Sequence record: PV419677.1
Source: a phage
Length of the DNA: 64,000 nucleotides
Direction: 5' to 3' (one strand)
Position numbers and translations under genes: made by a program. Shown piece by piece: positions 4,386 through 60,756 of the stretch. The notes under the pieces were generated by a model. That model saw only the letters and a program-made list of their open reading frames with translations. It was not told the origin of the DNA and searched no databases. Position 1 is the first letter of the stretch. Every line of letters begins with the position of its first letter.

Positions 4386-4926
4386 CAAGAACATAATAAT
4401 CATCAATAAATCCAGCATCAACTACCACGAATTTCTGGTCAACTGGAACAAACCATTCAAGCTCGGAATCAATCATGTCCATGTATTCTTCACGCCTTAA
4501 TGTAGCTGCCCGGTCGGAACCAGAAGCTGTATTGAAGAATTCAAGTGGAACATCAAGTGCGATTTTGCGCATCGCATCATGGTAACAAAAAGCTTTGGTC
4601 TGATTCAATCTGACGATAGTCCTAGTCACATATTCCATTGCAGCAAAATCCCTGGCAATACCATAGTCTTCTGTAAAGGAGGTTATCCGTCCAAATTCAA
4701 AAGGTTGCATTGATTCTTTTGCTTCATCTAACAAATCAATCTCTTGCTGGGTTACTCCGCGCCACAAGACTGTATCGGGTATAGACAACCTTGACTTGAT
4801 GATTGAGTTGACATTTGAATGCAAGGTCTTATCAACCTTTGATGTGCGGCATTCAAATAATGAAGCTATCTCCATTTCACTAAATTTTAACTGGTTGGGT
4901 TCGGTATCAGATTTGATGATGTTCAT
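4366..4926 (-). CDS. modB: ADP-ribosyltransferase, ModB-like
   Basis: 186 aa, similar architecture to the adjacent ModA-like gene (LWRG, SFTEDYGIARDF, acidic C-terminal E-x-E region). Confidence 0.6.
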   Translation of the reverse strand: MNIIKSDTEPNQLKFSEMEIASLFECRTSKVDKTLHSNVNSIIKSRLSIPDTVLWRGVTQQEIDLLDEAKESMQPFEFGRITSFTEDYGIARDFAAMEYVTRTIVRLNQTKAFCYHDAMRKIALDVPLEFFNTASGSDRAATLRREEYMDMIDSELEWFVPVDQKFVVVDAGFIDDYYVLDCVQEQ

Positions 4927-4982
4927 AATGGTCTCTCTGTTGTAAGAAAGACCATTATGACATTAGGAGGGGAGTAAGTAAA

Positions 4983-5252
4983 CTACTTAAATACTCCAAG
5001 TGGAACGCCAAAGACTGCAATGTCTACGGCCATACCAATCGGAGATTGATATGATGGAGATTGATATGATGAGTAAGAACTTTTCGATTTTATCGGGGTT
5101 TCGACTTTAATTGTCTCGGATTCAGTCTTAAGCCTTTGTAAACGATTAATTTTTTGTTGCTCGATTTCCTTATGAGCATGTTTACGGTCGATATCCAGCG
5201 CCGATGTGGGAATATTTGTTAACCAGTTCATTGTTTCACCCATGGTGCCCAT
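4983..5252 (-). CDS. hypothetical protein with Ser/Tyr-rich repeat
   Basis: 89 aa; contains SYQSPSYQSP encoded by an exact 15-bp tandem duplication at 5041-5070. Confidence 0.45.
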   Translation of the reverse strand: MGTMGETMNWLTNIPTSALDIDRKHAHKEIEQQKINRLQRLKTESETIKVETPIKSKSSYSSYQSPSYQSPIGMAVDIAVFGVPLGVFK

Positions 5253-5406
5253 GGAGGTGGGTCGTCGTAATATGAGGCCAGGTCGCGTAGAACTTCCAAG
5301 GGGAGGCTAAAACCGTGCTTCTGTATAATCGCATCAAGTTCGTCAACTAGGTCCACACGGGCTTCCGTAGGAGCTTTAGGCTCTTCAAAAAGTTCAAATA
5401 AATCCA

Positions 5407-5889
5407 TTAGTATCCACCGATAGGGCCGTAACCATACATACGAGCGCGCATCTTAGTATCGTGCAGAGCTTCTTCTGTTAAAGTAAAGCGCAGACCAATA
5501 TCAAAGTGTTTCCAAATCTGACGTTCAACTTCAGCAAGGTCTTCAGGTGCAGAAATCAGATATGTGCGACCTTTAAGTCGTTCAGTGGCCATTTTATCTC
5601 TATCTTTATAGAAAATGGTATCTTCGCCATAAAGGTCCGGGTGGCGATAGCCTTTGATGTGTAGAGCTTCGGAAACAGTAAACGGACACCCTTCGGCAAC
5701 ATCAACGTTTTTTCTATGAAATACCTTCAGCATAACGTTTTCTGGCATCGTCAGGTTCATTAATTTTGTTTCCAACTCAGTAACTGAATCCATGCCATTA
5801 TATGGCAAGATAAGACAGGCTGTTGCATCGTAAGGACGTGTCTGTCCAGCGGAATCACGGACATAGAATTCTAATTCATATACTTTCAT
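5407..5889 (-). CDS. hypothetical protein (mrh-region position)
   Basis: 160 aa minus-strand ORF. Confidence 0.5.
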
Positions 5890-6031
5890 AATGATTTCCT
5901 CTTACCGACTAATGGACCATCAGGAACTTTATTTTCCTTGATGTACTTTTCGTTTTCTTCCATCATTTTACTGCCAATTTTCAAAAGCAAATCCAGTGCT
6001 TCTTTTGCTCGGCGTTCAGCATCTTCTTGTG

Positions 6032-15542: not shown

Positions 15543-15785
15543 TCATTTGGTTTCCTTGATGATAATTACATGTGCATTTGATTTACGCTCAGCAACGAGT
15601 GCCCAGATAAATGCAATAAACCATCCGACCATTGTCCAACCTAACAGGAGGTTAACAAAGAAGATTCCGCAATTACTTTTGGTTCCTCGCAGTAGCGCGA
15701 TAATCCACGGCAGAAAATATGCCAGTGCAGCCAGGAAGAAAGAACCAGCACCAAGAACAACAGTACCTGCAATTAATGTTTCCAT
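15543..15785 (-). CDS. imm: superinfection immunity protein Imm-like
   Basis: 80 aa two-TM protein with NLLLGWTxVGW...IWAL motif; position upstream of gene 43. Confidence 0.6.
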   Translation of the reverse strand: METLIAGTVVLGAGSFFLAALAYFLPWIIALLRGTKSNCGIFFVNLLLGWTMVGWFIAFIWALVAERKSNAHVIIIKETK

Positions 15786-15857
15786 TTTAATATCCTTAAT
15801 TTAATCATCAGTAGTTGATGGAGTAATCATACGGCAATCCTTTGCTGTTGTAAACAC

Positions 15858-17267
15858 TTAAAAATCAAACATATCAAAAAGAGATGCTTTTTTCTCGTAA
15901 TCAACCTTAGCTGCTTCAGAGAACCCTGTTAACGGTTTGACAAAAGTCTTCTGGAACAGTGTGTTGTAGTCCATCCACTGCAAGACTTGGTCACGGATTT
16001 CAATCGGGAGTTCAATCCCAGATGGCCATGCAATCACGGTTTCACCAAACGGGTTGCCGACTTTAAGAGGAAGTACATACACCTTTTCCCCTTCCATGAT
16101 TTGTGGAACAGTCTTCAGACCTTTAGTTGCACGCATATATGCAAGCACACCTTTGATATGAGCCGGGCACTTAAATCCAGGGAAACCACCCTCATTATAT
16201 TTCTGAATGTTGTTAACCGATGATACACCTGCGATGGTCATGTAGTTAAGCTCATTAAATTCCTTATTGAATTCCTTGAAGTATGTCTGCAGAGATTCTT
16301 CACCTTCTTGCAGCATGCGACGGATACATTCTTTCAGAGCTTTCTGACATGCTTTTGGTGTGCTCGACTTTTGAGTTTCCAGACCCATGATTTTCAGTTT
16401 CGGAACAGCATATCGTGTGCCTTCCATATCGTACACATTCAGAGCATAACGCTTCTTCGCTGTCCAGAATCCACCAACACCTTTAGAACCAAGCGGAGGA
16501 CATGCAATCGCTTCACGGTCCATAAACATAAGGTGCTGTTTGTTGTTCATGTATTCAGCCAGTTCACGGAAAGCTTTATCGATTGCCGGTTCCAGACGGT
16601 CTTTCGCAAACTTGTCCATGAAGTCAACCAGGTGGTTTGTATCGCGGAATTTCGATTCGCCACCAACCTTTTTAATCAGGTTATCGCACTGGATATAAAT
16701 GGAGTCAGTATCGCCATAGAATACATATGTTTCACCACTTGTACCACAAACACTATCAAAATATTCGTTAACTTTACGCTCAATCCACTGCAATGCAAGT
16801 TGTCCGAAAGATGTAATCGCGGTTGCATTTCGCAGGTCAAAGTAACGGAACCAGATATTTCCCACAATTTTGTTCAGTTGAAGTCGTTAATTTCAACCCG
16901 GAATTATATCCAGCTGCATGTTGCCATGCAGAGCAGACTATATCATCATCTTTCGATGCCATGCGCTTCCAGCCACTTGGCTGTACTCCTTTCGGATAGT
17001 CGTTGCACGTTCCTATAATAGGCTTCGCTCAGGATTGTCTCATAGAGATGTCCCCTGAATTCACATGGTTTAAAGTGCGCCGGAATACTTGGTTAACGCA
17101 CCATAACAACTGTTGATAAGCAATTTGCGGTTAATCTGTGCAGTATTTGCCGCAATTTCTGCCATTTGCGAATTATGCAAATGACTTTCCAAATCCGCCC
17201 TTGATAATGTTTTTAAATATGCAATTTGCGAATCATCAAAATCTATATTATAATCAATATTCATCAT
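15858..17267 (-). CDS. 43: DNA polymerase C-terminal subunit gp43B, two exons: join(15858..16864, 17096..17267) if the intron is spliced
   Basis: exon 1 encodes motif B KLLINSCYGAL, exon 2 encodes GNIWFRY... and motif C YGDTDS; both in the same frame, separated by 231 nt with stops. Confidence 0.75.
16865..17095 (-). other. putative ORF-less group I intron in gene 43
   Basis: exon ends in U pairing with G of an internal GCGCAC guide; R-like CAACGACUAU and S-like GAUAUAGUC can form P7; GNRA hairpin CUGCAUG-GCAA-CAUGCAG; last nucleotide G. Confidence 0.6.
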
Positions 17268-18082
17268 TTATTCCTACAGTTATCAAAATGCCAACGTTTC
17301 ATGCCTGCTAATATACCTTCTTTTCCACAATGTGGACAAACTGCTTTAACCTCTTTTGCTTGTTTCCAATATTCCTTTCTGGCATCAGAAATAGCTTGAT
17401 TGTGTTCATCTGAATTTTTGTGTCCCAATCTGGTTTTAACGATATCTGGATTTTTAGCAACACGTTCTTTCATAAACTCAGATTTCGCTGCACGCATTTC
17501 TGGTGTCCAGGCATCGGAGCATTTTTGTTTGTGGTCGTCGGATATAGTTCCATTTTTCAGCACAGACTCATTGTTCTTATAATGTTCAATTAAACTTTGT
17601 GAACGTTTTTGACAAGTTTCTACCGAGTGTTTTGTTCCAGTATTTTTAATTGAGGCGATTTTAAAATTATCAATTGAAATTTTATTGTAATAATCTGGAT
17701 TTTGGGCCCGGGTATATTTGATACTATCGGAAACCTTTTTGGCAACTACTGGATTATGCATCGCATTTGGTAAATTTAAAGAATTGACATAATCCCACCC
17801 ACCTTTACCACCTGGGGTTAAATTATATGTGTCAGTACGTGTGATAAATTCATTATCAACTAATTTGGCTTCAAGTGCATATGCATCATCTTCGTTATCA
17901 AATTCAGCAATGATTGATTTGACCAGGTTATGCTTGCCATATTTTTCTTTCGCAGCTTTCACAATGGGACCCGAACCCAGATAATCATCCAACAAATTAT
18001 AAGATTCACATTTATGAACTCCAATGTAAATCTTATCGTTCACTAAATTTTTAATTTGATAAACAGTGTATACATTTTTCAT
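17264..18082 (-). CDS. GIY-YIG homing endonuclease (seg-like) inserted in gene 43
   Basis: 272 aa; N-terminal VYQIKNLVNDKIYIG, NLTPGGKGG; C-terminal zinc finger CPHCGKEGILAGMKRWHFDNC; own SD AAGGAG. Confidence 0.7.
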   Translation of the reverse strand: MKNVYTVYQIKNLVNDKIYIGVHKCESYNLLDDYLGSGPIVKAAKEKYGKHNLVKSIIAEFDNEDDAYALEAKLVDNEFITRTDTYNLTPGGKGGWDYVNSLNLPNAMHNPVVAKKVSDSIKYTRAQNPDYYNKISIDNFKIASIKNTGTKHSVETCQKRSQSLIEHYKNNESVLKNGTISDDHKQKCSDAWTPEMRAAKSEFMKERVAKNPDIVKTRLGHKNSDEHNQAISDARKEYWKQAKEVKAVCPHCGKEGILAGMKRWHFDNCRNK

Positions 18083-18104
18083 AATGTCTCCTTAATTTAA
18101 AAAT

Positions 18105-18138
18105 ATTTTAGCGCGCTTCCTTGCGCTTGTACAACTTA
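18105..18138 (-). promoter_or_regulatory. promoter-like element upstream of the gene-43 HEG
   Basis: TTGTACAA -35, 18-nt spacer, TAAAAT -10. Confidence 0.35.
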
Positions 18139-19659
18139 AAGATGGTTTAAAAGGTCTTTAATCAATTCACTATTACGTTGTGCCGCCAACATCTTTTTCT
18201 TTTCGGTTTTTCGTTGATTAAAAACTTTCTCAACTTCTGTCGGAATAATACCTGCAACATCTTTAAAATACATCATGCCATTTGGAGCACAACTAAATGT
18301 ATCAGATGGACGGTCAGCAGTTCCTGCGATGTATTCATACATCGGCGCAGGAGCAAATGAACCGGCAATCGTTTCTGGACTGATGTTAATCTGTCGGATG
18401 ATGCTCGGATACAGAGATGTCAAGTCACAGCTCATAACGTATTTGTATGCGTTCGGAATCGGTTCCTTAACAAATGCACCAGGGAATGATTGACGAACAT
18501 GCGATTTGGTTTCCGGAATGACTTTGTTTTGAGTCTTCAGGCTGTTAAAGATAATCGCATCCCAAGTTTTGATTGGGCTGAATACAGACTGAATCTGCAT
18601 TTTTGCGTAATAACCCATTGACTGGCTAAGGTTAATAAACTGGCGCTTACGGTCAATCTGTACAACACGATAAACATCGATGATGTTATAAGAAATATAC
18701 CGTTGGTGATTTGATTCACGCAGTTTAGAAATCGGACCATCATACGGGAGTTTACCAACACCCAGCTCAGATTCCGCAACATAATCCAACGAATAAGACG
18801 GTTGGTTTGTGAAGCTGAACTTTTTATACAGGTCCAGATAATCCAGAACAGAGATACCCAGAATCTGAATGATTTCTTGTTCTTCACCAAAGCCGTTGTT
18901 AATTACTTTAACTTTTGTACGACGATGTGGGCTCAGACGTTTTGCTGTGGCTTCACCAAATACATTTTTAAGGCGGTTGTAGATATACGGAATATCAAAC
19001 TTCTCGATGTTCCAACCAGTTAACATAACCGGAGTTTTCTCGTTCCAGAATACCAAATACTGCTGGAGCATTTCTTCTTCTGAATCGAAAGCCATATAAA
19101 CAATTTTTTCCAGGATTTCTTCAGGGACTTCATCGCCGCCATCTTCTTGCAGCTTGGCAGCAATATCAATAGACCATTGCTCCACAGTGGCGTATGGTGA
19201 GCTCAAAAGGTCAAAGACATAGAATTTATCGTCTACCGAATCATAGTGCGTCAGGGCATCAATAGGGTGACGTGCTTCAGACGGCTCAGGGAACCCATCC
19301 GGAGATGTCACCTCGATATCGAAGTTAGCCACACGGATTTTACTTGAATCGTATTTGATTTCGTGTGGATAACGGTCGGACAAGTATGCGAGTTTAAAGT
19401 CATCCATACCCATAGCTTCGAGACCCATGTCATTCATTCGCTTCATCCACTGGGATGCATCACGCATGGAATCGAATTCTTTTTTCACACAACCTTTATT
19501 ATAGATGTCTGTATACTTTGCAGCCTGGTCTTCGCGAGCATGCATAAACAAGCATGGAGCATAAGGGATTTCACGAACACGTTCATGACCATTCTTGTCA
19601 ATGTATCGTTCAAGCAGATTGTCACCGATTTGTTCGATAGTTAAATAAAATTCTTGCAT
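18136..19659 (-). CDS. 43: DNA polymerase N-terminal subunit gp43A (N-terminal and 3'-5' exonuclease region)
   Basis: 507 aa; N-terminus MQEFYLTIEQIGDNLLERYID matches remembered T4 gp43; ends in-frame with stop before the HEG. Confidence 0.9.
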   Translation of the reverse strand: MQEFYLTIEQIGDNLLERYIDKNGHERVREIPYAPCLFMHAREDQAAKYTDIYNKGCVKKEFDSMRDASQWMKRMNDMGLEAMGMDDFKLAYLSDRYPHEIKYDSSKIRVANFDIEVTSPDGFPEPSEARHPIDALTHYDSVDDKFYVFDLLSSPYATVEQWSIDIAAKLQEDGGDEVPEEILEKIVYMAFDSEEEMLQQYLVFWNEKTPVMLTGWNIEKFDIPYIYNRLKNVFGEATAKRLSPHRRTKVKVINNGFGEEQEIIQILGISVLDYLDLYKKFSFTNQPSYSLDYVAESELGVGKLPYDGPISKLRESNHQRYISYNIIDVYRVVQIDRKRQFINLSQSMGYYAKMQIQSVFSPIKTWDAIIFNSLKTQNKVIPETKSHVRQSFPGAFVKEPIPNAYKYVMSCDLTSLYPSIIRQINISPETIAGSFAPAPMYEYIAGTADRPSDTFSCAPNGMMYFKDVAGIIPTEVEKVFNQRKTEKKKMLAAQRNSELIKDLLNHL

Positions 19660-19720
19660 TTGGTTTCCTTTATAGTCGAGTGATTGACTTTTGTTTTATG
19701 ACTTGATGTTATTATACTAC

Positions 19721-19741
19721 AAAAGGGACCGAAGTCCCTTT
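19721..19741 (-). terminator. intrinsic terminator hairpin
   Basis: minus strand GGGAC-TTCG-GTCCC followed by TTTTG. Confidence 0.5.
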
Positions 19742-19744
19742 GCT

Positions 19745-19972
19745 TTAAATTTCTATTGTACGTCGTTCGATGGTTGGATTACCCTTTTCATCTTTAGTTC
19801 TAACCATAGCCTGGAAGACTCTCTGTCCAGGATGCAATAATTTCTTGAGTTCCTTTTGAAATTCTATTTGAAGTTCTTCGGAAAGGTCAAAAATAGTTTG
19901 ATTTGGGGAAAGTCCATATATTTCTTTAAGGCGTTCGCATGTTTCAATTTCATGCTTCATATCAATTACCAA
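19745..19972 (-). CDS. hypothetical protein
   Basis: 75 aa ORF between regA and 43. Confidence 0.4.
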   Translation of the reverse strand: MVIDMKHEIETCERLKEIYGLSPNQTIFDLSEELQIEFQKELKKLLHPGQRVFQAMVRTKDEKGNPTIERRTIEI

Positions 19973-20910: not shown

Positions 20911-21878
20911 TTCATTTCCCCAGCCAGTTGAGCAAACAGATAAGTCAAGTGAACTTCGGTATTGGCCGCAATGCCATGGTACTGATTATTCTCACCTACA
21001 ATCTCATACATGCGGATGATACTTGCACCAGTCAGTTTGCCATACATTTCATCAGCCAGCTTTGCAATGAAGCTTGAATAATCATTTGCATGCTTAGGAG
21101 CCAGACCACGGAGAACTTTAAAGTTACGGTCCTTAAGGGCATCAATCACATCATCAATTGGCGTGCGATTGTTTGTCACGATACTCAGAATACCAGAATC
21201 GATAACACCCTTTGCAGAGTAACGGTCAAGCTCGTTAATTGTCTTACGCAGGTCCGGGAAGTTATGCTTAACCAGAGCAGCAACAACTTTCAGGTCTTCG
21301 ATTTCAACGCCTTCGTTTTTACATATCGCAACCGCACGATGAATCATCTCTTTCATCATAGTAGTCTGGTCAGCTGGAGTTGCTTCACCAAACTTAATTA
21401 CGCGACAACGAGACTGCAACGGAGTAATGATGCCATCGATATTGTTCGCGGTCATAATGATTGAACAGTTGCTCGAATAAGCTTCCATAAAGCTACGGAG
21501 GTGTCGTTGTGATTCTGCCAGACCTGCACGGTCGAACTCATCGATAACAATTACCTTACGGCGACCTTCGATTGATTTGGATGATGCAAAGCGAGTCAAT
21601 TCATTACGCACAAAGTCAATTCGGCAATCGGAGCCGTTAACAAACAGCATATCAGAATTCGTATCTGCGCACATAGCTTTTGCAACTGTTGTCTTACCAG
21701 TACCAGGGGAACTACTGACCAGAATCAAGTTAGGAATCAAACCTTTTTTAACAATCGCCTCTAATGTTTCTTTATCGTGAGCCGGGAGAATACACTCTGA
21801 TAATGTACCTGGGCGGTATTTTTGTTCCCACATGAAGTCGGATTCGTTGACTGTCAAACCGTTAATTACTGTTGCCAT
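20901..21878 (-). CDS. 44: clamp loader large subunit gp44 (AAA+)
   Basis: Walker A SPGTGKTT, DEFDR Walker B; start trimmed to an internal Met. Confidence 0.9.
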   Translation of the reverse strand: MATVINGLTVNESDFMWEQKYRPGTLSECILPAHDKETLEAIVKKGLIPNLILVSSSPGTGKTTVAKAMCADTNSDMLFVNGSDCRIDFVRNELTRFASSKSIEGRRKVIVIDEFDRAGLAESQRHLRSFMEAYSSNCSIIMTANNIDGIITPLQSRCRVIKFGEATPADQTTMMKEMIHRAVAICKNEGVEIEDLKVVAALVKHNFPDLRKTINELDRYSAKGVIDSGILSIVTNNRTPIDDVIDALKDRNFKVLRGLAPKHANDYSSFIAKLADEMYGKLTGASIIRMYEIVGENNQYHGIAANTEVHLTYLFAQLAGEMKWL

Positions 21879-22439
21879 TATTATTTTCCTCATTAAATTT
21901 TTTAACTATTTTATTCAATTCATTGGCTGAATAATTATACCCATAGTTCCGCAAAAGCGTACTGAACTTACCGCGCTTTGGTTTATCCAGCTCTATCCAA
22001 ATTTTTAACAGTTCATCATAGTGATTCCAAACTTCAGAACGCTGCCATAACGAACAATTCAATTTATGTGTTTTACTAAATGTTCGAGATACACCAGTAC
22101 GTGATTCAGACATTTGTCTACGAGTTTCTTCTGTATGAAAATCAACTCCACCATTACCGCCTGGATGAACATTAACACATTTATTTCCATATTCAATAAG
22201 ACCTTTGGCAACAATCAAAGATTCATAGTGTTTAGCTTCTTTGAAAGTTTTTACTTCTTTAATAATTTTTGTATCGAATAACCAAAGCCCAGGAATTAAA
22301 TCATTTTCTTTTCGACAAGCTTTAATAAACGTTCCACTGCCGTGATATTCTTCACCGGTCAAACGATGTCTACCAAAATAATGATAAACATCGTTTGATG
22401 CAGTATTTGTTATTTTTGTATGATAACAAATGTATGACA
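21862..22439 (-). CDS. GIY-YIG homing endonuclease (seg-like) between genes 45 and 44
   Basis: start at ATG 22437-22439 with GGAG SD; SYICY...VYHYFG, YHGSG and NVHPGGNGG motifs shared with the gene-43 HEG. Confidence 0.55.
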
Positions 22440-22471
22440 TTTTATTCTCCATGGGGCCGAAGCCCCATTTA

Positions 22472-23658: not shown

Positions 23659-23895
23659 TTCAATTAATCAAAGTATTCATATGCGAACCAGGCATTGTGT
23701 CTGTTCGCGATTATTTTAACATATTCTTCACCGAAAGCGTTTTGCAAGTCACGTTCAGTGACAAGGTGTTCATCTTTCGAAAAGGTATTAACTAACACAT
23801 ACCGTTTAATTTCAGGGACAGCCAGTAAATGCTGCCCGGTTAAAAAATTGCTCATAAATAATATTATCCGTTGCAGTATCAAACAAGGGTCTGAT

Positions 23896-24612
23896 ATGAA
23901 TTATAACATCATTTACCAAAAGCTTATTAGCAGAGCATTGAATCGCAAATTAACCACATACTCTGAAAGCCATCACATTATACCCCGTTGTATGGGTGGG
24001 GCTGACGACGCTTCAAATCTTGTTGATTTAACTCCCGAGGAACATTTCGTTTGCCATCAACTGTTGGTCAAAATGCATCCAAATAACGCTTCTTTGGTCT
24101 ATGCCGCGCGCATGATGACAGTTTCTGCACCAAATGCCGACAGAAGCAAAAATAAATTATTTGGATGGCTTCGTCGTAAAAACTTGGAAGCTCAACAAAA
24201 TAAAATTTTCTCCGATGAAACCAGAAAGAAAATGTCAGAATCCGCCAAATTAAAACCGAGAGTCGAATGTCCACACTGTGGAAAAACCGGTCTCGCTGGC
24301 AATATGAATCGTTGGCATTTTGATAACTGTTCCAAAGGTCCAAACAAGGTTGTTCATACTATTCCGGAAAAGCAAAAGCAAAAAATTTCAGTAGGTTTAA
24401 AACAAGCTAAACATGAAATTTTAAATTGTGAATTTTGCGGGCTTGAAGGTAAAAAGTGTGTTATATCCACTCACCGACAATTCTGCAAATCCAATCCAAA
24501 CCGGAAGAAAAAGGTGGACCCCAAAATTCAGTGTCCACACTGTAATGTAGTCAGTACGCCAGCTAATATGAAACGTTGGCATTTTGATAACTGCAAAATG
24601 AAGCCTCAATAA
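23896..24612 (+). CDS. HNH homing endonuclease with three C-terminal zinc-finger repeats
   Basis: start trimmed to ATG 23896; HHIIPRCMGGADDASNLVDLTPEEHFVCH; three copies of a CPHCGK...RWHFDNC-type module; only large plus-strand gene in the region. Confidence 0.7.
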   Translation: MNYNIIYQKLISRALNRKLTTYSESHHIIPRCMGGADDASNLVDLTPEEHFVCHQLLVKMHPNNASLVYAARMMTVSAPNADRSKNKLFGWLRRKNLEAQQNKIFSDETRKKMSESAKLKPRVECPHCGKTGLAGNMNRWHFDNCSKGPNKVVHTIPEKQKQKISVGLKQAKHEILNCEFCGLEGKKCVISTHRQFCKSNPNRKKKVDPKIQCPHCNVVSTPANMKRWHFDNCKMKPQ

Positions 24613-24617
24613 GAGGC

Positions 24618-26312
24618 TCATTCCAGAACAGTAAATCGACCGACTTTTTTCATTTGAAGATGCTGTCCATATGCTTCTGGGTCATGGTCTCGGTGACTGA
24701 TGATAAACACGTTTTGACCTTCCAATTTATTGATAATTGCCTGGATAGCTTTGATGCCTTCGGCGTCAGTGGCTGAATCCATGACCTCATCCAGAATCAA
24801 CGTACTAATTTGCACACCAGATACTTTCGCAGCAATATCGCGCCATGTAAACAGCAATGCAATATCTATACGAGCTTTTTCACCCTGGCTAAATGATGCA
24901 TAGCTAAAGTCTTCACGTCCACGAGATTTAATCGTTTCGTTGAACTCTTCATCTAACGTAAAGCTATAATCAGCTTCCATAACTTTAAGATAAGCGTTTA
25001 TCTGCTTATTAAAGATAGGAATATATTTCTTAATAATCGCGCCCTTAATACCAGAATCTTTCAACATATCCGTTAGGATACCACGTTGATATTTTTCCAT
25101 CACAAGGTCGGATTTCTGTTTGACTATTTTATCAAGCTGGTCTTGGAGCATTTTAATGTCTGCTGCATGGTCAATGAATTCCGACTTGGCTTGCTCGATT
25201 AATGCTTTAACCTTTTTAGCTTTTTCGACAGTCTGGACTAAGGTTTGTTTCTTAGTTTGAATGTCTTGAGCTATTGTACGCTGGTTTTGTCTTGCCTTGG
25301 TATACGCATCAAATTGCTCCTGAACAACATTCTGGCGAGCTTTATGCTTATCAGCCGAAGCATTACATTCTTCAATCTTTGACTCAATCCTGGCGACAAT
25401 AGGGTCTCCTGGATGCAACTGACTGGCACAGGTCTGACAACAACCACCTTTCTCGTACAGACCAACAACCTTTCGATAATCGTCAATCTTCGACTTAATC
25501 AGGAATGATTCTTGCTTTAACTTCGTGAGTTCATGCTCAGGGTCTTCTCCCAAGATTATCTCGGTCAGTCTTGTCGTTGCTTCTTCGATAGTTGTCTTGA
25601 TTCCACGTGCTTCTGTGGCAAGTTCATCATACATCGTTTGCAGTCGCAACAGATTATCGCCTGACAATTTTCTTTGACGGTCTTCGTTGTCCTGATAGAT
25701 TTTAATCTGTTGAACAATACCATCATGCTGCACATCCATCACCTGGATTTGGCTATTGACTTCGCGGATAAGAGATTTGTTCAACTTATCCATATCGGCC
25801 AGTACAGAAACCTCTAAAAGGTCTTCGACAAGCTTTCTTCTGGCAGGAGTGGATAGGCCCATAAAAGGGGTATATCCAGCTGTGCCGAGTACGACAATTT
25901 GTTTGAAACTGGCGTATGACATTCCGATAAGCTGTTCAAATTCCGCTTGGAAGTCTTTACTGCTGGCAGATTCATCAAGACGTTTACCGCCACAAGAGAT
26001 TTCAAAAACATTGGGTTTTTGCCCGCGTTTGATATAGTATTCTTTTCCATCATATTCCATCCACAATTCAACGAGCATATCTTTTTTGTTGCTCGAGTTA
26101 ATCAGCTGACCTTTCTTTACATCACGGAAAGGCTTACCGAACATAGCAAAGGTAACCGCTTCAAGGAACGTAGATTTACCTGCGCCATTCTTGCCGGTGA
26201 CCAGAGTTTTCTGAACTTTATCCAGTTCAACAGTAATCGGTTGAGCACCAACCGACATAATATTTTTATAGATAACTTTCTTAAGCTTAAAAGTCTTCAT
26301 CGTAATAAGCAT
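24618..26312 (-). CDS. 46: recombination nuclease subunit gp46 (SbcC/Rad50-like ATPase)
   Basis: 564 aa; Walker A GKNGAGKST, long coiled-coil, C-terminal signature and Walker B. Confidence 0.9.
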   Translation of the reverse strand: MLITMKTFKLKKVIYKNIMSVGAQPITVELDKVQKTLVTGKNGAGKSTFLEAVTFAMFGKPFRDVKKGQLINSSNKKDMLVELWMEYDGKEYYIKRGQKPNVFEISCGGKRLDESASSKDFQAEFEQLIGMSYASFKQIVVLGTAGYTPFMGLSTPARRKLVEDLLEVSVLADMDKLNKSLIREVNSQIQVMDVQHDGIVQQIKIYQDNEDRQRKLSGDNLLRLQTMYDELATEARGIKTTIEEATTRLTEIILGEDPEHELTKLKQESFLIKSKIDDYRKVVGLYEKGGCCQTCASQLHPGDPIVARIESKIEECNASADKHKARQNVVQEQFDAYTKARQNQRTIAQDIQTKKQTLVQTVEKAKKVKALIEQAKSEFIDHAADIKMLQDQLDKIVKQKSDLVMEKYQRGILTDMLKDSGIKGAIIKKYIPIFNKQINAYLKVMEADYSFTLDEEFNETIKSRGREDFSYASFSQGEKARIDIALLFTWRDIAAKVSGVQISTLILDEVMDSATDAEGIKAIQAIINKLEGQNVFIISHRDHDPEAYGQHLQMKKVGRFTVLE

Positions 26313-58211: not shown

Positions 58212-58286
58212 GGTATTTCCTTCAGTTGGTTAATGTTTTATTATCCAGGGAACATACTATCATGTTCCCAGAGGTATGTAAACATT

Positions 58287-58715
58287 TTATTTCATTTTTG
58301 CGAGGCAGATTTCATTGGCTTCCCATTGAGCTTGCTTAATAATAGCTTTTGATACAGGAACCTTTTGGCCATAAGTTTTTGACGTTGAGAGAACAATATA
58401 TTTGTTTGTCTCATTATGACAACCCCATGATTTTTCGCCATGAGTACCTTTAACTACAGCTGACACCTCAACAGAACAACCATCAGCTCCAATCTTGGTA
58501 TCCACAATCCATTCATTTCGCTTAATTGCTTCTTCCAATGTTGCCGCTTCCGCCATCCAGTGCGTTTCAGGGTCTATTTGTTCAATCTCACGAGTTAACG
58601 CAACTCCCAAGTCTTTTGCATATTTTTGTTGTTCAGGAGTTAATGAGTCATATAACTTTTTCATTTCTTTATCTTCAATATTCATAATATTTTCCTCAAG
58701 GGGCTTTCGCCCCAT
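58287..58715 (-). CDS. hypothetical protein
   Basis: 142 aa ORF; GC hairpin immediately upstream of its SD. Confidence 0.45.
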   Translation of the reverse strand: MGRKPLEENIMNIEDKEMKKLYDSLTPEQQKYAKDLGVALTREIEQIDPETHWMAEAATLEEAIKRNEWIVDTKIGADGCSVEVSAVVKGTHGEKSWGCHNETNKYIVLSTSKTYGQKVPVSKAIIKQAQWEANEICLAKMK

Positions 58716-58719
58716 TCAT

Positions 58720-60360: not shown

Positions 60361-60599
60361 TGCTCGGCTTACGGCAAAGATATTCCCTCGAATCGATAAT
60401 TCTGTGCGCCGTTTCAGCTGTGATATAAGGGGACATCAACAAATCGTAAAGATTTATTAATGCCAGTCCTTAAACAGGGAACTTCAGTCCGACGACTTAC
60501 CGGTAGCGACCCGGTTTCTTGTTTGTTGCGCCGGTGAATGCTGATAATCAGTCTTCATACGACGGCTTGACTATATAATAGTCTTCATTTGGTATCCCG

Positions 60600-60674
60600 C
60601 CCTGGGATCGAACCAGGACCGCAAACTTAGAAGGATCGTATGCTATCCATTACACCAGCGGGACATAGTTGGTG
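60600..60674 (-). tRNA. tRNA-Arg (anticodon UCU)
   Basis: hand-folded cloverleaf: acceptor GTCCCGC/GCGGGAT, anticodon loop CTTCTAA, T-loop TTCGATC, encoded CCA. Confidence 0.75.
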
Positions 60675-60679
60675 ACCCA

Positions 60680-60756
60680 GACCAGATTTGAACTGGTAAC
60701 CTTTCCCTTATGAGGGGACTGCTGCTAACCATTGAGCTACAGGGCCTTAATTCTAT
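60680..60756 (-). tRNA. tRNA with anticodon CAU (Ile2 or Met type)
   Basis: hand-folded: acceptor GGCCCTG/CTGGGTC, anticodon loop CTCATAA, T-arm ACCAG-TTCAAAT-CTGGT, encoded CCA. Confidence 0.65.

Follow-up and report, generated by a model that had tools for sequence, protein, structure and literature searches.

A probable self-splicing group I intron and a free-standing GIY-YIG endonuclease gene in the split DNA polymerase gene of an SP18-like phage

The closest described counterpart of the element reported here comes from Aeromonas salmonicida phage 25, in which the two cistrons of DNA polymerase gene 43, 43A and 43B, are accompanied by a free-standing homing endonuclease gene (HEG), seg43(25), and by Intron 25.g43B (Petrov, Ratnayaka and Karam 2010, J Mol Biol, as cited in PMC2993671 and PMC2988022). 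The 43A and 43B products of phage 25 co-purify with polymerase activity (PMC2988022), and the intron is described as a group I intron whose mobility is ascribed to the free-standing HEG (PMC2993671). The same review saw, as of 2010, 'no convincing evidence' that elements of this kind pass from one phage cluster to another when the clusters belong to different host genera (PMC2993671). Here we describe a comparable locus in a 64,000-nt stretch of phage DNA (sequence record PV419677.1; this whole stretch is called the window below). Its gene 43 is also split, and the 43B part very probably contains an IA2-type self-splicing group I intron, devoid of any open reading frame (ORF) of its own, that belongs to a composite mobile cassette. 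The cassette runs from the tail of 43A through a 53-nt spacer and a free-standing GIY-YIG HEG to the head of 43B and the intron.

The window and phage 25 agree in the order of these parts, 43A, spacer, free-standing GIY-YIG HEG and 43B with an ORF-less group I intron (Aes508 is annotated likewise), and in the splitting of gene 43 at the fingers tip. Down to the nucleotide, the intron is inserted at the same site in the window, G2285, PSD2002, Aes508, phiAS4, AS-gz, UP87 and phage 25. Phage 25 and AS-gz share the window's 5' exon TATGGTGCGT and guide GCGCAC, the phage 25 junction reading TATGGTGCGT/TAA, and the intron cores of phage 25 and its relatives (Aes508, phiAS4, AS-gz and UP87) are homologous to that of the window, with 71-80% identity. 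The HEGs of this group have 39-46% amino acid identity to the window's and share its C-terminal CPHCGKEGI..M.RWHFDNC motif. According to a first-pass annotation of the window, T4 itself is not known to have an intron at this site; to this must be added that the same element has been described at the same site in phage 25, and that a copy has been flagged in G2285. The phage 25 intron reportedly self-splices, and its HEG reportedly cuts intron-free 43B alleles.

The two settings also differ. The window phage is an SP18-like Gaprivervirus of E. coli/Shigella, whereas the phage 25 group belongs to the Tulanevirus phages of Aeromonas. The window intron is shorter, at 231 nt compared to 271-352 nt in the phage 25 group, with minimal P6, P7.1 and P9.1; its 43B lacks an intein, while those of Aes508 and AS-gz have one; and, unlike in the phage 25 group, the cassette is entirely missing from the close relatives of the window. 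In Aes508 (4420-5931) and AS-gz, by the annotation of the records, 43B is also broken by a split intein flanking an ORF with a VSR-like endonuclease domain, so that a single polymerase gene can host as many as four kinds of invasive element.

HEG-carrying phage introns resemble that of the window in being IA-type group I introns that have P7.1 and P7.2 and interrupt DNA-metabolism genes in conserved catalytic regions. They move by homing, which co-converts flanking exon sequence, and have the HEG inside the intron, whereas the window intron is ORF-less, sits in another host gene and has its HEG 169 nt upstream. As here, a free-standing endonuclease and a HEG-less intron are paired in the case of F-CphI, proposed to mobilise the adjacent cyanophage psbA intron (Zeng, Bonocora and Shub 2009), and in that of T4 MobE, which mobilises the nrdB intron (Wilson and Edgell 2009). 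By likeness, the collaborative or trans homing model (Bonocora and Shub 2009) would apply to the window: in such systems, as would be the case here, the intron interrupts the target and the carrier genome is thereby protected. They differ from the window in their endonuclease families and host genes, and in that the window HEG insertion also splits the host gene.

Boundaries, structure and covariation of the intron

The minus-strand polymerase frame continues from ...AQINRKLLINSCYGAL through seven more codons (TKYSGAL) into the intron before reaching a stop, and the same frame reopens 231 nt on with GNIWFRYFDLRNATAIT, just as the first-pass annotation had it (...NSCYGAL, stops, then GNIWFRY in frame). 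Joining U17096 to U16864 produces GCG-U/UG-GGA, encoding Ala-Leu-Gly, and leaves the spliced 43B open for 392 codons. The Y-G-A-L-G-N junction proposed on first reading is borne out by two comparisons. The intronless gene 43 of Shigella phage SP18, a phage 96% identical to the window overall, aligns flush at both edges of exactly these 231 nt. Similarly, residues 1-899 of 43A plus spliced 43B align to residues 1-903 of RB69 gp43 (1clq) with no gap at the intron junction, the sole gap being one of 6 residues at the 43A/43B split (RB69 ~507-513). The uninterrupted motif that had been quoted for T4 is indeed unbroken, as NSLYGALGNIHFRYYDL, in the 898-residue polymerase chain 9e5y.

The insertion point lies between the first and second bases of the Leu codon of YGA-L-GN, this being the codon of Leu570 in RB69 numbering, two residues past PolB motif B (K560-x3-N564-S-x-Y567-G568). 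The intron had previously been assigned to motif B of gene 43, and it does lie at the C-terminal edge of that motif; the gene is not otherwise intact, however, since what is interrupted is the 43B cistron of a split gene. The upstream split, with a GIY-YIG HEG in the gap, is context that the earlier reading missed. The ORF map contains no HEG-sized ORF within the 231 nt. An intein is ruled out by the in-frame stops, by an RNA structure that explains the interruption and by the lack of a Hint/intein domain match. An independent GTG start of exon 2 is very unlikely, given a missing Shine-Dalgarno sequence and the position of the break inside a helix.

Lack of an Rfam match had been named beforehand as an outcome that would speak against an intron, and a covariance-model search of the minus strand was suggested. 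The search yielded a strong match to RF00028 at 17127..16914 (-), spanning the full length of the model (1-253) with 81.4 bits against a gathering score of 50 (E = 3.9e-19), a score far beyond chance, so that this objection falls and the proposal of an ORF-less group I intron is upheld. No other RNA family was matched in 15700..19800 at E <= 1, the group I match standing alone. Minimum free energy folding of the window sequence by itself gave z = -3.05 and recovered most helices of the proposed structure (Table 1). Elements of that structure had been picked out on first reading: a last exon U facing a guide G in a P1 of 7 bp, which is formed by GGUGCGU with GCGCACU (17080..17074) and has the U17096.G17080 wobble at the splice site; R-like CAACGACUAU and S-like GAUAUAGUC segments, which pair as P7 (17001..16996 with 16941..16936); a GNRA-capped hairpin, CUGCAUG-GCAA-CAUGCAG, which is P9 (16931..16914); and a terminal intron G, which is G16865. 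The presence of P7.1 and P7.2 between the P7 5' strand and P3' marks the phage IA type, and the label IA2 combines the term used for the homologue in the phage 25 GenBank record (DQ529280; 43B 'split by group IA2 intron') with the presence of P7.1/P7.2.

Structure and splice sites were assessed on an alignment of 13 related introns, from gene 43 of seven phages and from the terminase, DnaB-helicase and RNA-polymerase genes of others. Wherever the ends of an intron are defined, the proposed junctions restore conserved motifs (YGALGN, GAGTGVGKT, LVDEAT). Across the 13 sequences 94.1% of paired cells are complementary, compared to 34-46% in controls with partners slid by 1-3 columns; compensatory changes on both sides occur in 39 of 65 pairs, and the covariation score was reached by none of 500 shuffles. 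Without guidance, RNAalifold returned P3, P4, P5, P6, P6a, P7.1, P7.2, P9, P9.1 and P9.2, with 34 of its 48 predicted pairs compensatory. Pairing is complete in P4, P7.2 (4/5 pairs covarying), P9 and P9.2 (6/6 pairs covarying), and stands at 98.9% in P3 (5/7 pairs covarying), 96% in P7, where 5 of the 6 pairs are invariant in 13/13 sequences, and 94% in P6a.

The exons covary with the intron as well. The splice-site U.G is present in 10/10 homologues and the terminal G in 10/10 introns with defined ends. In the Aeromonas phages two P1 pairs covary with synonymous changes in Gly and Ala codons (GGUGCGU/GCGCACU in one form, GGAGCUU/GAGCUCC in the other), and the P10 guide tracks exon 2 bases 1-5 from phage to phage: UGGGA/UUCCG in the window, UGGGU/ACUCG in G2285, UAGGU/ACUUG in Aes508 and UGAUG/CAUCA in phiA009. 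The conservation of the U.G pair and the covariation of P1 and P10 with the exons thus support the splice sites independently.

A further feature of the RNA is that the P9.2 loop AUUAACGAC (16891-16883) echoes the AACGAC(U) motif of J6/7 and the P7 5' strand (17003-16997). AACGAC is kept at both places in nearly all related introns that cover the region, and the repeat could represent a tertiary contact or an alternative partner of the P7 3' strand.

Table 1. Features of the gene 43 locus in window coordinates; intron nucleotide n corresponds to window coordinate 17096 - n
Feature	Intron position	Window position	Strand	Description
43A cistron		18136..19659	-	507 residues; exonuclease domain, motif A (DLTSLYPS), first fingers helix; Pfam DNA_pol_B_exo1, DNA_pol_B
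Spacer (IC-UTS)		18083..18135	-	53 nt, 43A stop to HEG start; hairpin AGCGC-N8-GCGCU at 18127..18110
Free-standing Seg-like GIY-YIG HEG		17264..18082	-	272 residues; own AAGGAG ribosome-binding site; C-terminal CPHCGKEGILAGMKRWHFDNC motif
43B exon 1		17096..17267	-	172 nt; MMNIDYNIDF...KLLINSCYGA(L), includes motif B; RB69 gp43 ~514-570
ORF-less group I intron, IA2-like		16865..17095	-	231 nt; Rfam RF00028, flush SP18 alignment, covariation
43B exon 2		15858..16864	-	(L)GNIWFRY...YGDTDS (motif C)...FDMFDF, then stop
Imported mosaic tract relative to SP18-like phages		16860..18250	-	~1.4 kb; 43A tail, IC-UTS, HEG, 43B exon 1, intron, first 5 nt of exon 2
P1 5' strand		17096..17102	-	Last 7 exon bases, GGUGCGU; 5' splice site after U17096
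Internal guide		17074..17085	-	P10 guide UUCCG 17085..17081, then P1 3' strand GCGCACU 17080..17074
P1	exon -7..-1 with 16-22
P10	11-15 with exon +1..+5			5 bp; UUCCG with UGGGA
Core domains enclosed by P3		16959..17068	-	Also holds P7 5' strand, P7.1, P7.2
P3	28-34 with 131-137	17068..17062 with 16965..16959	-
P4	38-43 with 62-67	17058..17053 with 17034..17029	-
P5	48-51 with 55-58	17048..17045 with 17041..17038	-
P6	68-70 with 87-89	17028..17026 with 17009..17007	-
P6a	74-77 with 81-84	17022..17019 with 17015..17012	-
P7	95-100 with 155-160	17001..16996 with 16941..16936	-	Pseudoknot, G-binding site; GACUAU with AUAGUC
P7.1	101-102 with 107-108	16995..16988	-
P7.2	113-117 with 122-126	16983..16970	-
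P8	138-141 with 146-149	16958..16947	-	GAAA loop
3' domain		16865..16931	-	P9, P9.1, P9.2, tail, omega-G
P9	165-171 with 176-182	16931..16914	-	GCAA loop; CUGCAUG-GCAA-CAUGCAG
P9.1	183-187 with 194-198	16913..16898	-
P9.2	199-204 with 214-219	16897..16877	-	Conserved loop AUUAACGAC
Omega-G	231	16865	-	Terminal intron base

The split polymerase gene and its endonuclease

The 43A product ends in ...AAQRNSELIKDLLNHL and aligns to RB69 gp43 residues 1 to ~507, an alignment that places the split point at the tip of the fingers domain. Since 43A closes with a stop and the HEG starts from an ATG and a ribosome-binding site of its own, the HEG is free-standing rather than intron-encoded. A second intron around the HEG can be ruled out, since the region 15700..19800 holds one group I match alone at E <= 1. 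The HEG product matches PHROG 314 'homing endonuclease' at E = 2.7e-47, and the relatives closest to it in 50,697 phage records are each located between a 43A and a 43B cistron: G2285 (62.5% identity), phiAS4/Aes508 (45.6%) and phage 25 (39.5%). The TGA stop of the HEG overlaps the 43B ATG (ATGA, 17267..17264), and we infer that translation of 43B is coupled to that of the HEG.

The 5-bp hairpin of the IC-UTS, with its terminator-like tail, is indistinguishable from shuffled sequence (z = -0.75). On that figure nothing is claimed for a regulatory hairpin of the kind discussed for seg43(25). G2285 and Aes508 have a hairpin at the matching place in their IC-UTS, with a different stem sequence.

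Distribution, mosaic structure and mobility

Within the phage collection searched, the only other coliphages with the intron are Escherichia phages vB_EcoM_G2285 (MK327933, Mosigvirus) and PSD2002 (OK335775, Dhakavirus), and the literature search found no paper on either copy. In G2285 the intron is 89% identical to that of the window and occupies the same site in the same 43A/HEG/43B layout; the HEG has 62.5% amino acid identity and the polymerase ~75%. Its record bears an Rfam-flagged 'Intron_gpI' with the comment 'unable to determine intron/exon boundaries'. PSD2002 has the intron alone, again 89% identical to the window's, in an unsplit gene; in its record the intron is unannotated and the polymerase appears as two coding sequences. 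The G2285 and PSD2002 introns are 96.5% identical to each other, whereas the polymerase exons of window, G2285 and PSD2002 share merely 71-76%, a contrast partly due to structural constraint on the intron. PSD2002 is ~97.5% identical overall to the intronless WG01, and their differences cluster at the insertion site (5 at -16..-1 and 11 at +2..+59), where PSD2002 reads largely like G2285. This tract indicates that the intron entered with a short flanking stretch and without the HEG.

Mosaicism of the same kind is seen in the window. SP18-like relatives that are 96-97% identical to it lack the cassette. Outside the imported tract, nearly all 50-nt blocks of gene 43 match SP18 with 92-100% identity. 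Inside, identity drops to 70-74% at 18250..18151, is lost over the HEG, and reaches 60-86% in 43B exon 1. The 16850..16801 block is again 100% identical, position +5 being the sole difference in the first exon 2 bases. The exon differences from SP18 beside the intron, at -5, -2, -1 and +5, fall on bases that form P1 and P10.

The exact HEG protein was found in four metagenome contigs, one from ENA (ERZ27275844) and three from Logan runs (SRR14369232, SRR9943764 and DRR251916), all colinear with the window. Over the 1,271 nt from 18135 to 16865 (spacer, HEG, exon 1 and intron) they have 0-1 differences from it, compared to 2.3-5.4% in the adjoining 43A and 43B exons. The contrast between cassette and flanks is significant by Fisher's test (p = 4e-6 to 2e-19). 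Since the contigs had been retrieved by exact HEG protein identity, the HEG was left out of a second test, which gave p = 1e-4 to 3e-8. The identical tract has ends that vary by contig: 18338, 18252 or 18168 on the upstream side, 16807 or 16861 on the downstream side. Recent homing with variable co-conversion would be expected to leave such a pattern, an element that is unchanged within diverged flanks and whose tract ends vary.

One of the Logan contigs (SRR14369232) has the intron with 0 differences and C for A at exon 2 position +5 (window 16860). This would cut P10 to 4 bp, and places the end of a conversion tract within 4 nt of the 3' splice site. Searches of IMG/VR and of the JGI metagenomes for the exon-intron junction pattern gave 0 matches each, so that abundance cannot be claimed for the element.

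By analogy with its homologues and the published systems, the locus may be expected to work as follows. The RNA would fold into the P3-P9 core, with the guide GCGCACU pairing to exon GGUGCGU as P1. Exogenous guanosine, supplied as GTP, would attack after U17096, whereupon the guide UUCCG would pair with UGGGA of exon 2 as P10. The terminal G16865 would take the G-binding site in P7, and ligation of the exons to GCG-UUG-GGA would restore motif B and the fingers helix. Three proteins would be translated, gp43A (507 residues), the endonuclease (272 residues) and, after splicing, gp43B (392 residues), and gp43A and gp43B would come together as the two subunits of the polymerase. During mixed infection, the endonuclease would be expected to cut gene 43 alleles without intron or cassette, recombinational repair then copying the cassette along with variable lengths of flanking exon, as in collaborative or trans homing. 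If repair ended within the 75-nt SP18-homologous stretch of exon 1 that separates the HEG from the intron, only the intron would plausibly be passed on, as in PSD2002, whereas a longer resection would carry the HEG and the split across too.

Beyond the locus itself, we lean, by a modest margin, to the view that the cassette is an actively homing composite spreading through SP18-like coliphages, and that the system has also crossed between the T4-like phages of Aeromonas and Enterobacteriaceae, reaching at least three coliphage genera, with intron and HEG moving jointly (window, G2285) or separately (PSD2002).

The alternative that best withstands these data, itself improbable, is a functional passenger intron that is immobile and vertically inherited, beside an unrelated or inactive HEG, with ordinary recombination or selection accounting for the identical cassette. 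It fits the mere 39-62% identity of the window HEG to its homologues, the empty IMG/VR and JGI searches, which show that the element is not abundant, and the heavy recombination that T4-like phages undergo anyway. A near-perfect 1.27 kb (0-1 differences, against 2.3-5.4% in the flanks) whose ends differ by contig is harder to reconcile with it, as is an intron 89-96% identical in three coliphage genera whose polymerase genes share merely 71-76%. The PSD2002 co-conversion tract is centred on the insertion site, and the HEG family is always at this locus beside the intron, in Aeromonas and E. coli phages alike; the review literature, moreover, credits the free-standing HEG with intron mobility (PMC2993671).

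It is more improbable again that the element is a decayed relic that no longer splices, so that the locus would yield 43A, a 64-residue peptide ending ...YGALTKYSGAL, and a C-terminal fragment begun at the GTG at 16865..16863. An ORF with this start does appear on the ORF map (16865..15858), and the family tolerates split PolB enzymes at the 43A/43B junction (PMC2988022). The GTG, however, has no Shine-Dalgarno sequence upstream (ACUGAACAAAAUUGUG), and the break would strike the conserved fingers helix two residues past motif B instead of a loop. Nor is decay apparent in the RNA: the ribozyme core is intact, 31 bits over the Rfam threshold, P1 and P10 fit the window phage's own exon bases, the intron recurs with 0 differences in four contigs, and PSD2002 bears the same intron in an otherwise unsplit gene. 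Chimeric joining of a foreign intron and HEG into the contig during assembly or sequencing can be dismissed, even though the exact genome of the window was absent from the phage collection searched, given four independent assemblies colinear with it and gap-free over both cassette junctions, and the coherence of reading frames, stop/start overlap and exon complementarity in P1 and P10.

Several observations weigh against a self-splicing intron in a mobile cassette. Self-splicing of the phage 25 intron and cleavage of intron-free alleles are reported properties, cited here through two reviews. The window intron has no P2, and its P5 is merely 4 bp with a 3-nt loop. The GIY-YIG domain passes Pfam PF01541 marginally (23.0 bits, cut-off 22.6), and the PDB match to I-TevI, in which VYQIKN..NDKIYIG aligns to IYQIKN..NNKVYVG, is weak (E = 0.29). 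As the contigs were retrieved through an identical HEG protein, their comparison is biased where the HEG is concerned, and short metagenome contigs can be chimeric. No donor of the cassette was found, the best match being G2285 with its HEG merely 62.5% identical. Finally, exon 1 is SP18-like at ~17140..17104, where GCACAGATTAACCG...AACAGTTGTTA encodes NSCYG with the Cys that SP18-like phages typically have. Upstream of this patch the sequence is of cassette type, and downstream comes the intron-associated TGGTGCGT. The patch may reflect patchy gene conversion or the acquisition of HEG and intron in separate events.

Annotation, wider meaning and other insertions

Gene 43 of the window should be annotated as 43A plus a spliced 43B, join(17267..17096, 16864..15858) (-), rather than being broken up into three or four 'DNA polymerase' fragments, and the records of G2285 and PSD2002 call for the same correction. 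The gain is incremental and brings no new principle, the arrangement having been known since 2010 from Aeromonas phage 25. It extends the phage 25 paradigm, in which a free-standing endonuclease, an ORF-less intron and a split essential gene form one transfer unit, to tractable coliphages, and adds population-level evidence of current mobility of that unit. The existence of intronless SP18-like relatives makes both collaborative homing and split PolB assembly directly testable in E. coli. If homing is active and transfer between hosts has occurred, these phages would offer a natural series of collaborative-homing intermediates, and the transfer would be a counter-example to the 2010 statement on host genera (PMC2993671).

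Other insertions relative to SP18 were seen in the window. One of 547 nt lies at 21894-22440, between the genes for gp44 and gp45. The corresponding feature, at 21862-22452 (-), is an ORF of ~196 residues with a match to PHROG 314 'homing endonuclease' (E = 3e-16) and a weak NUMOD3, and gives the replication gene cluster a second free-standing HEG of the Seg-like kind. Another, of 776 nt at 23844-24619, lies between gp45.2 and gp46 and holds an HNH homing endonuclease gene (23893-24612 (+); PHROG 655, E = 5e-67) whose neighbours all lie on the other strand. The HNH protein has a repeated CPHCGKxG..M.RWHFDNC, the motif that also ends the GIY-YIG endonuclease of gene 43, which suggests a zinc-ribbon DNA-binding module common to HEG families. 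A third insertion, of 448 nt at 58270-58717, contains an ORF of 142 residues (58287-58715 (-)) with no Pfam match. Lastly, two tRNA genes, Arg-TCT and Met-CAT, are found at 60590-60746 (-), where SP18 has three (Arg, Asn and Met), the Asn gene being the one missing here.

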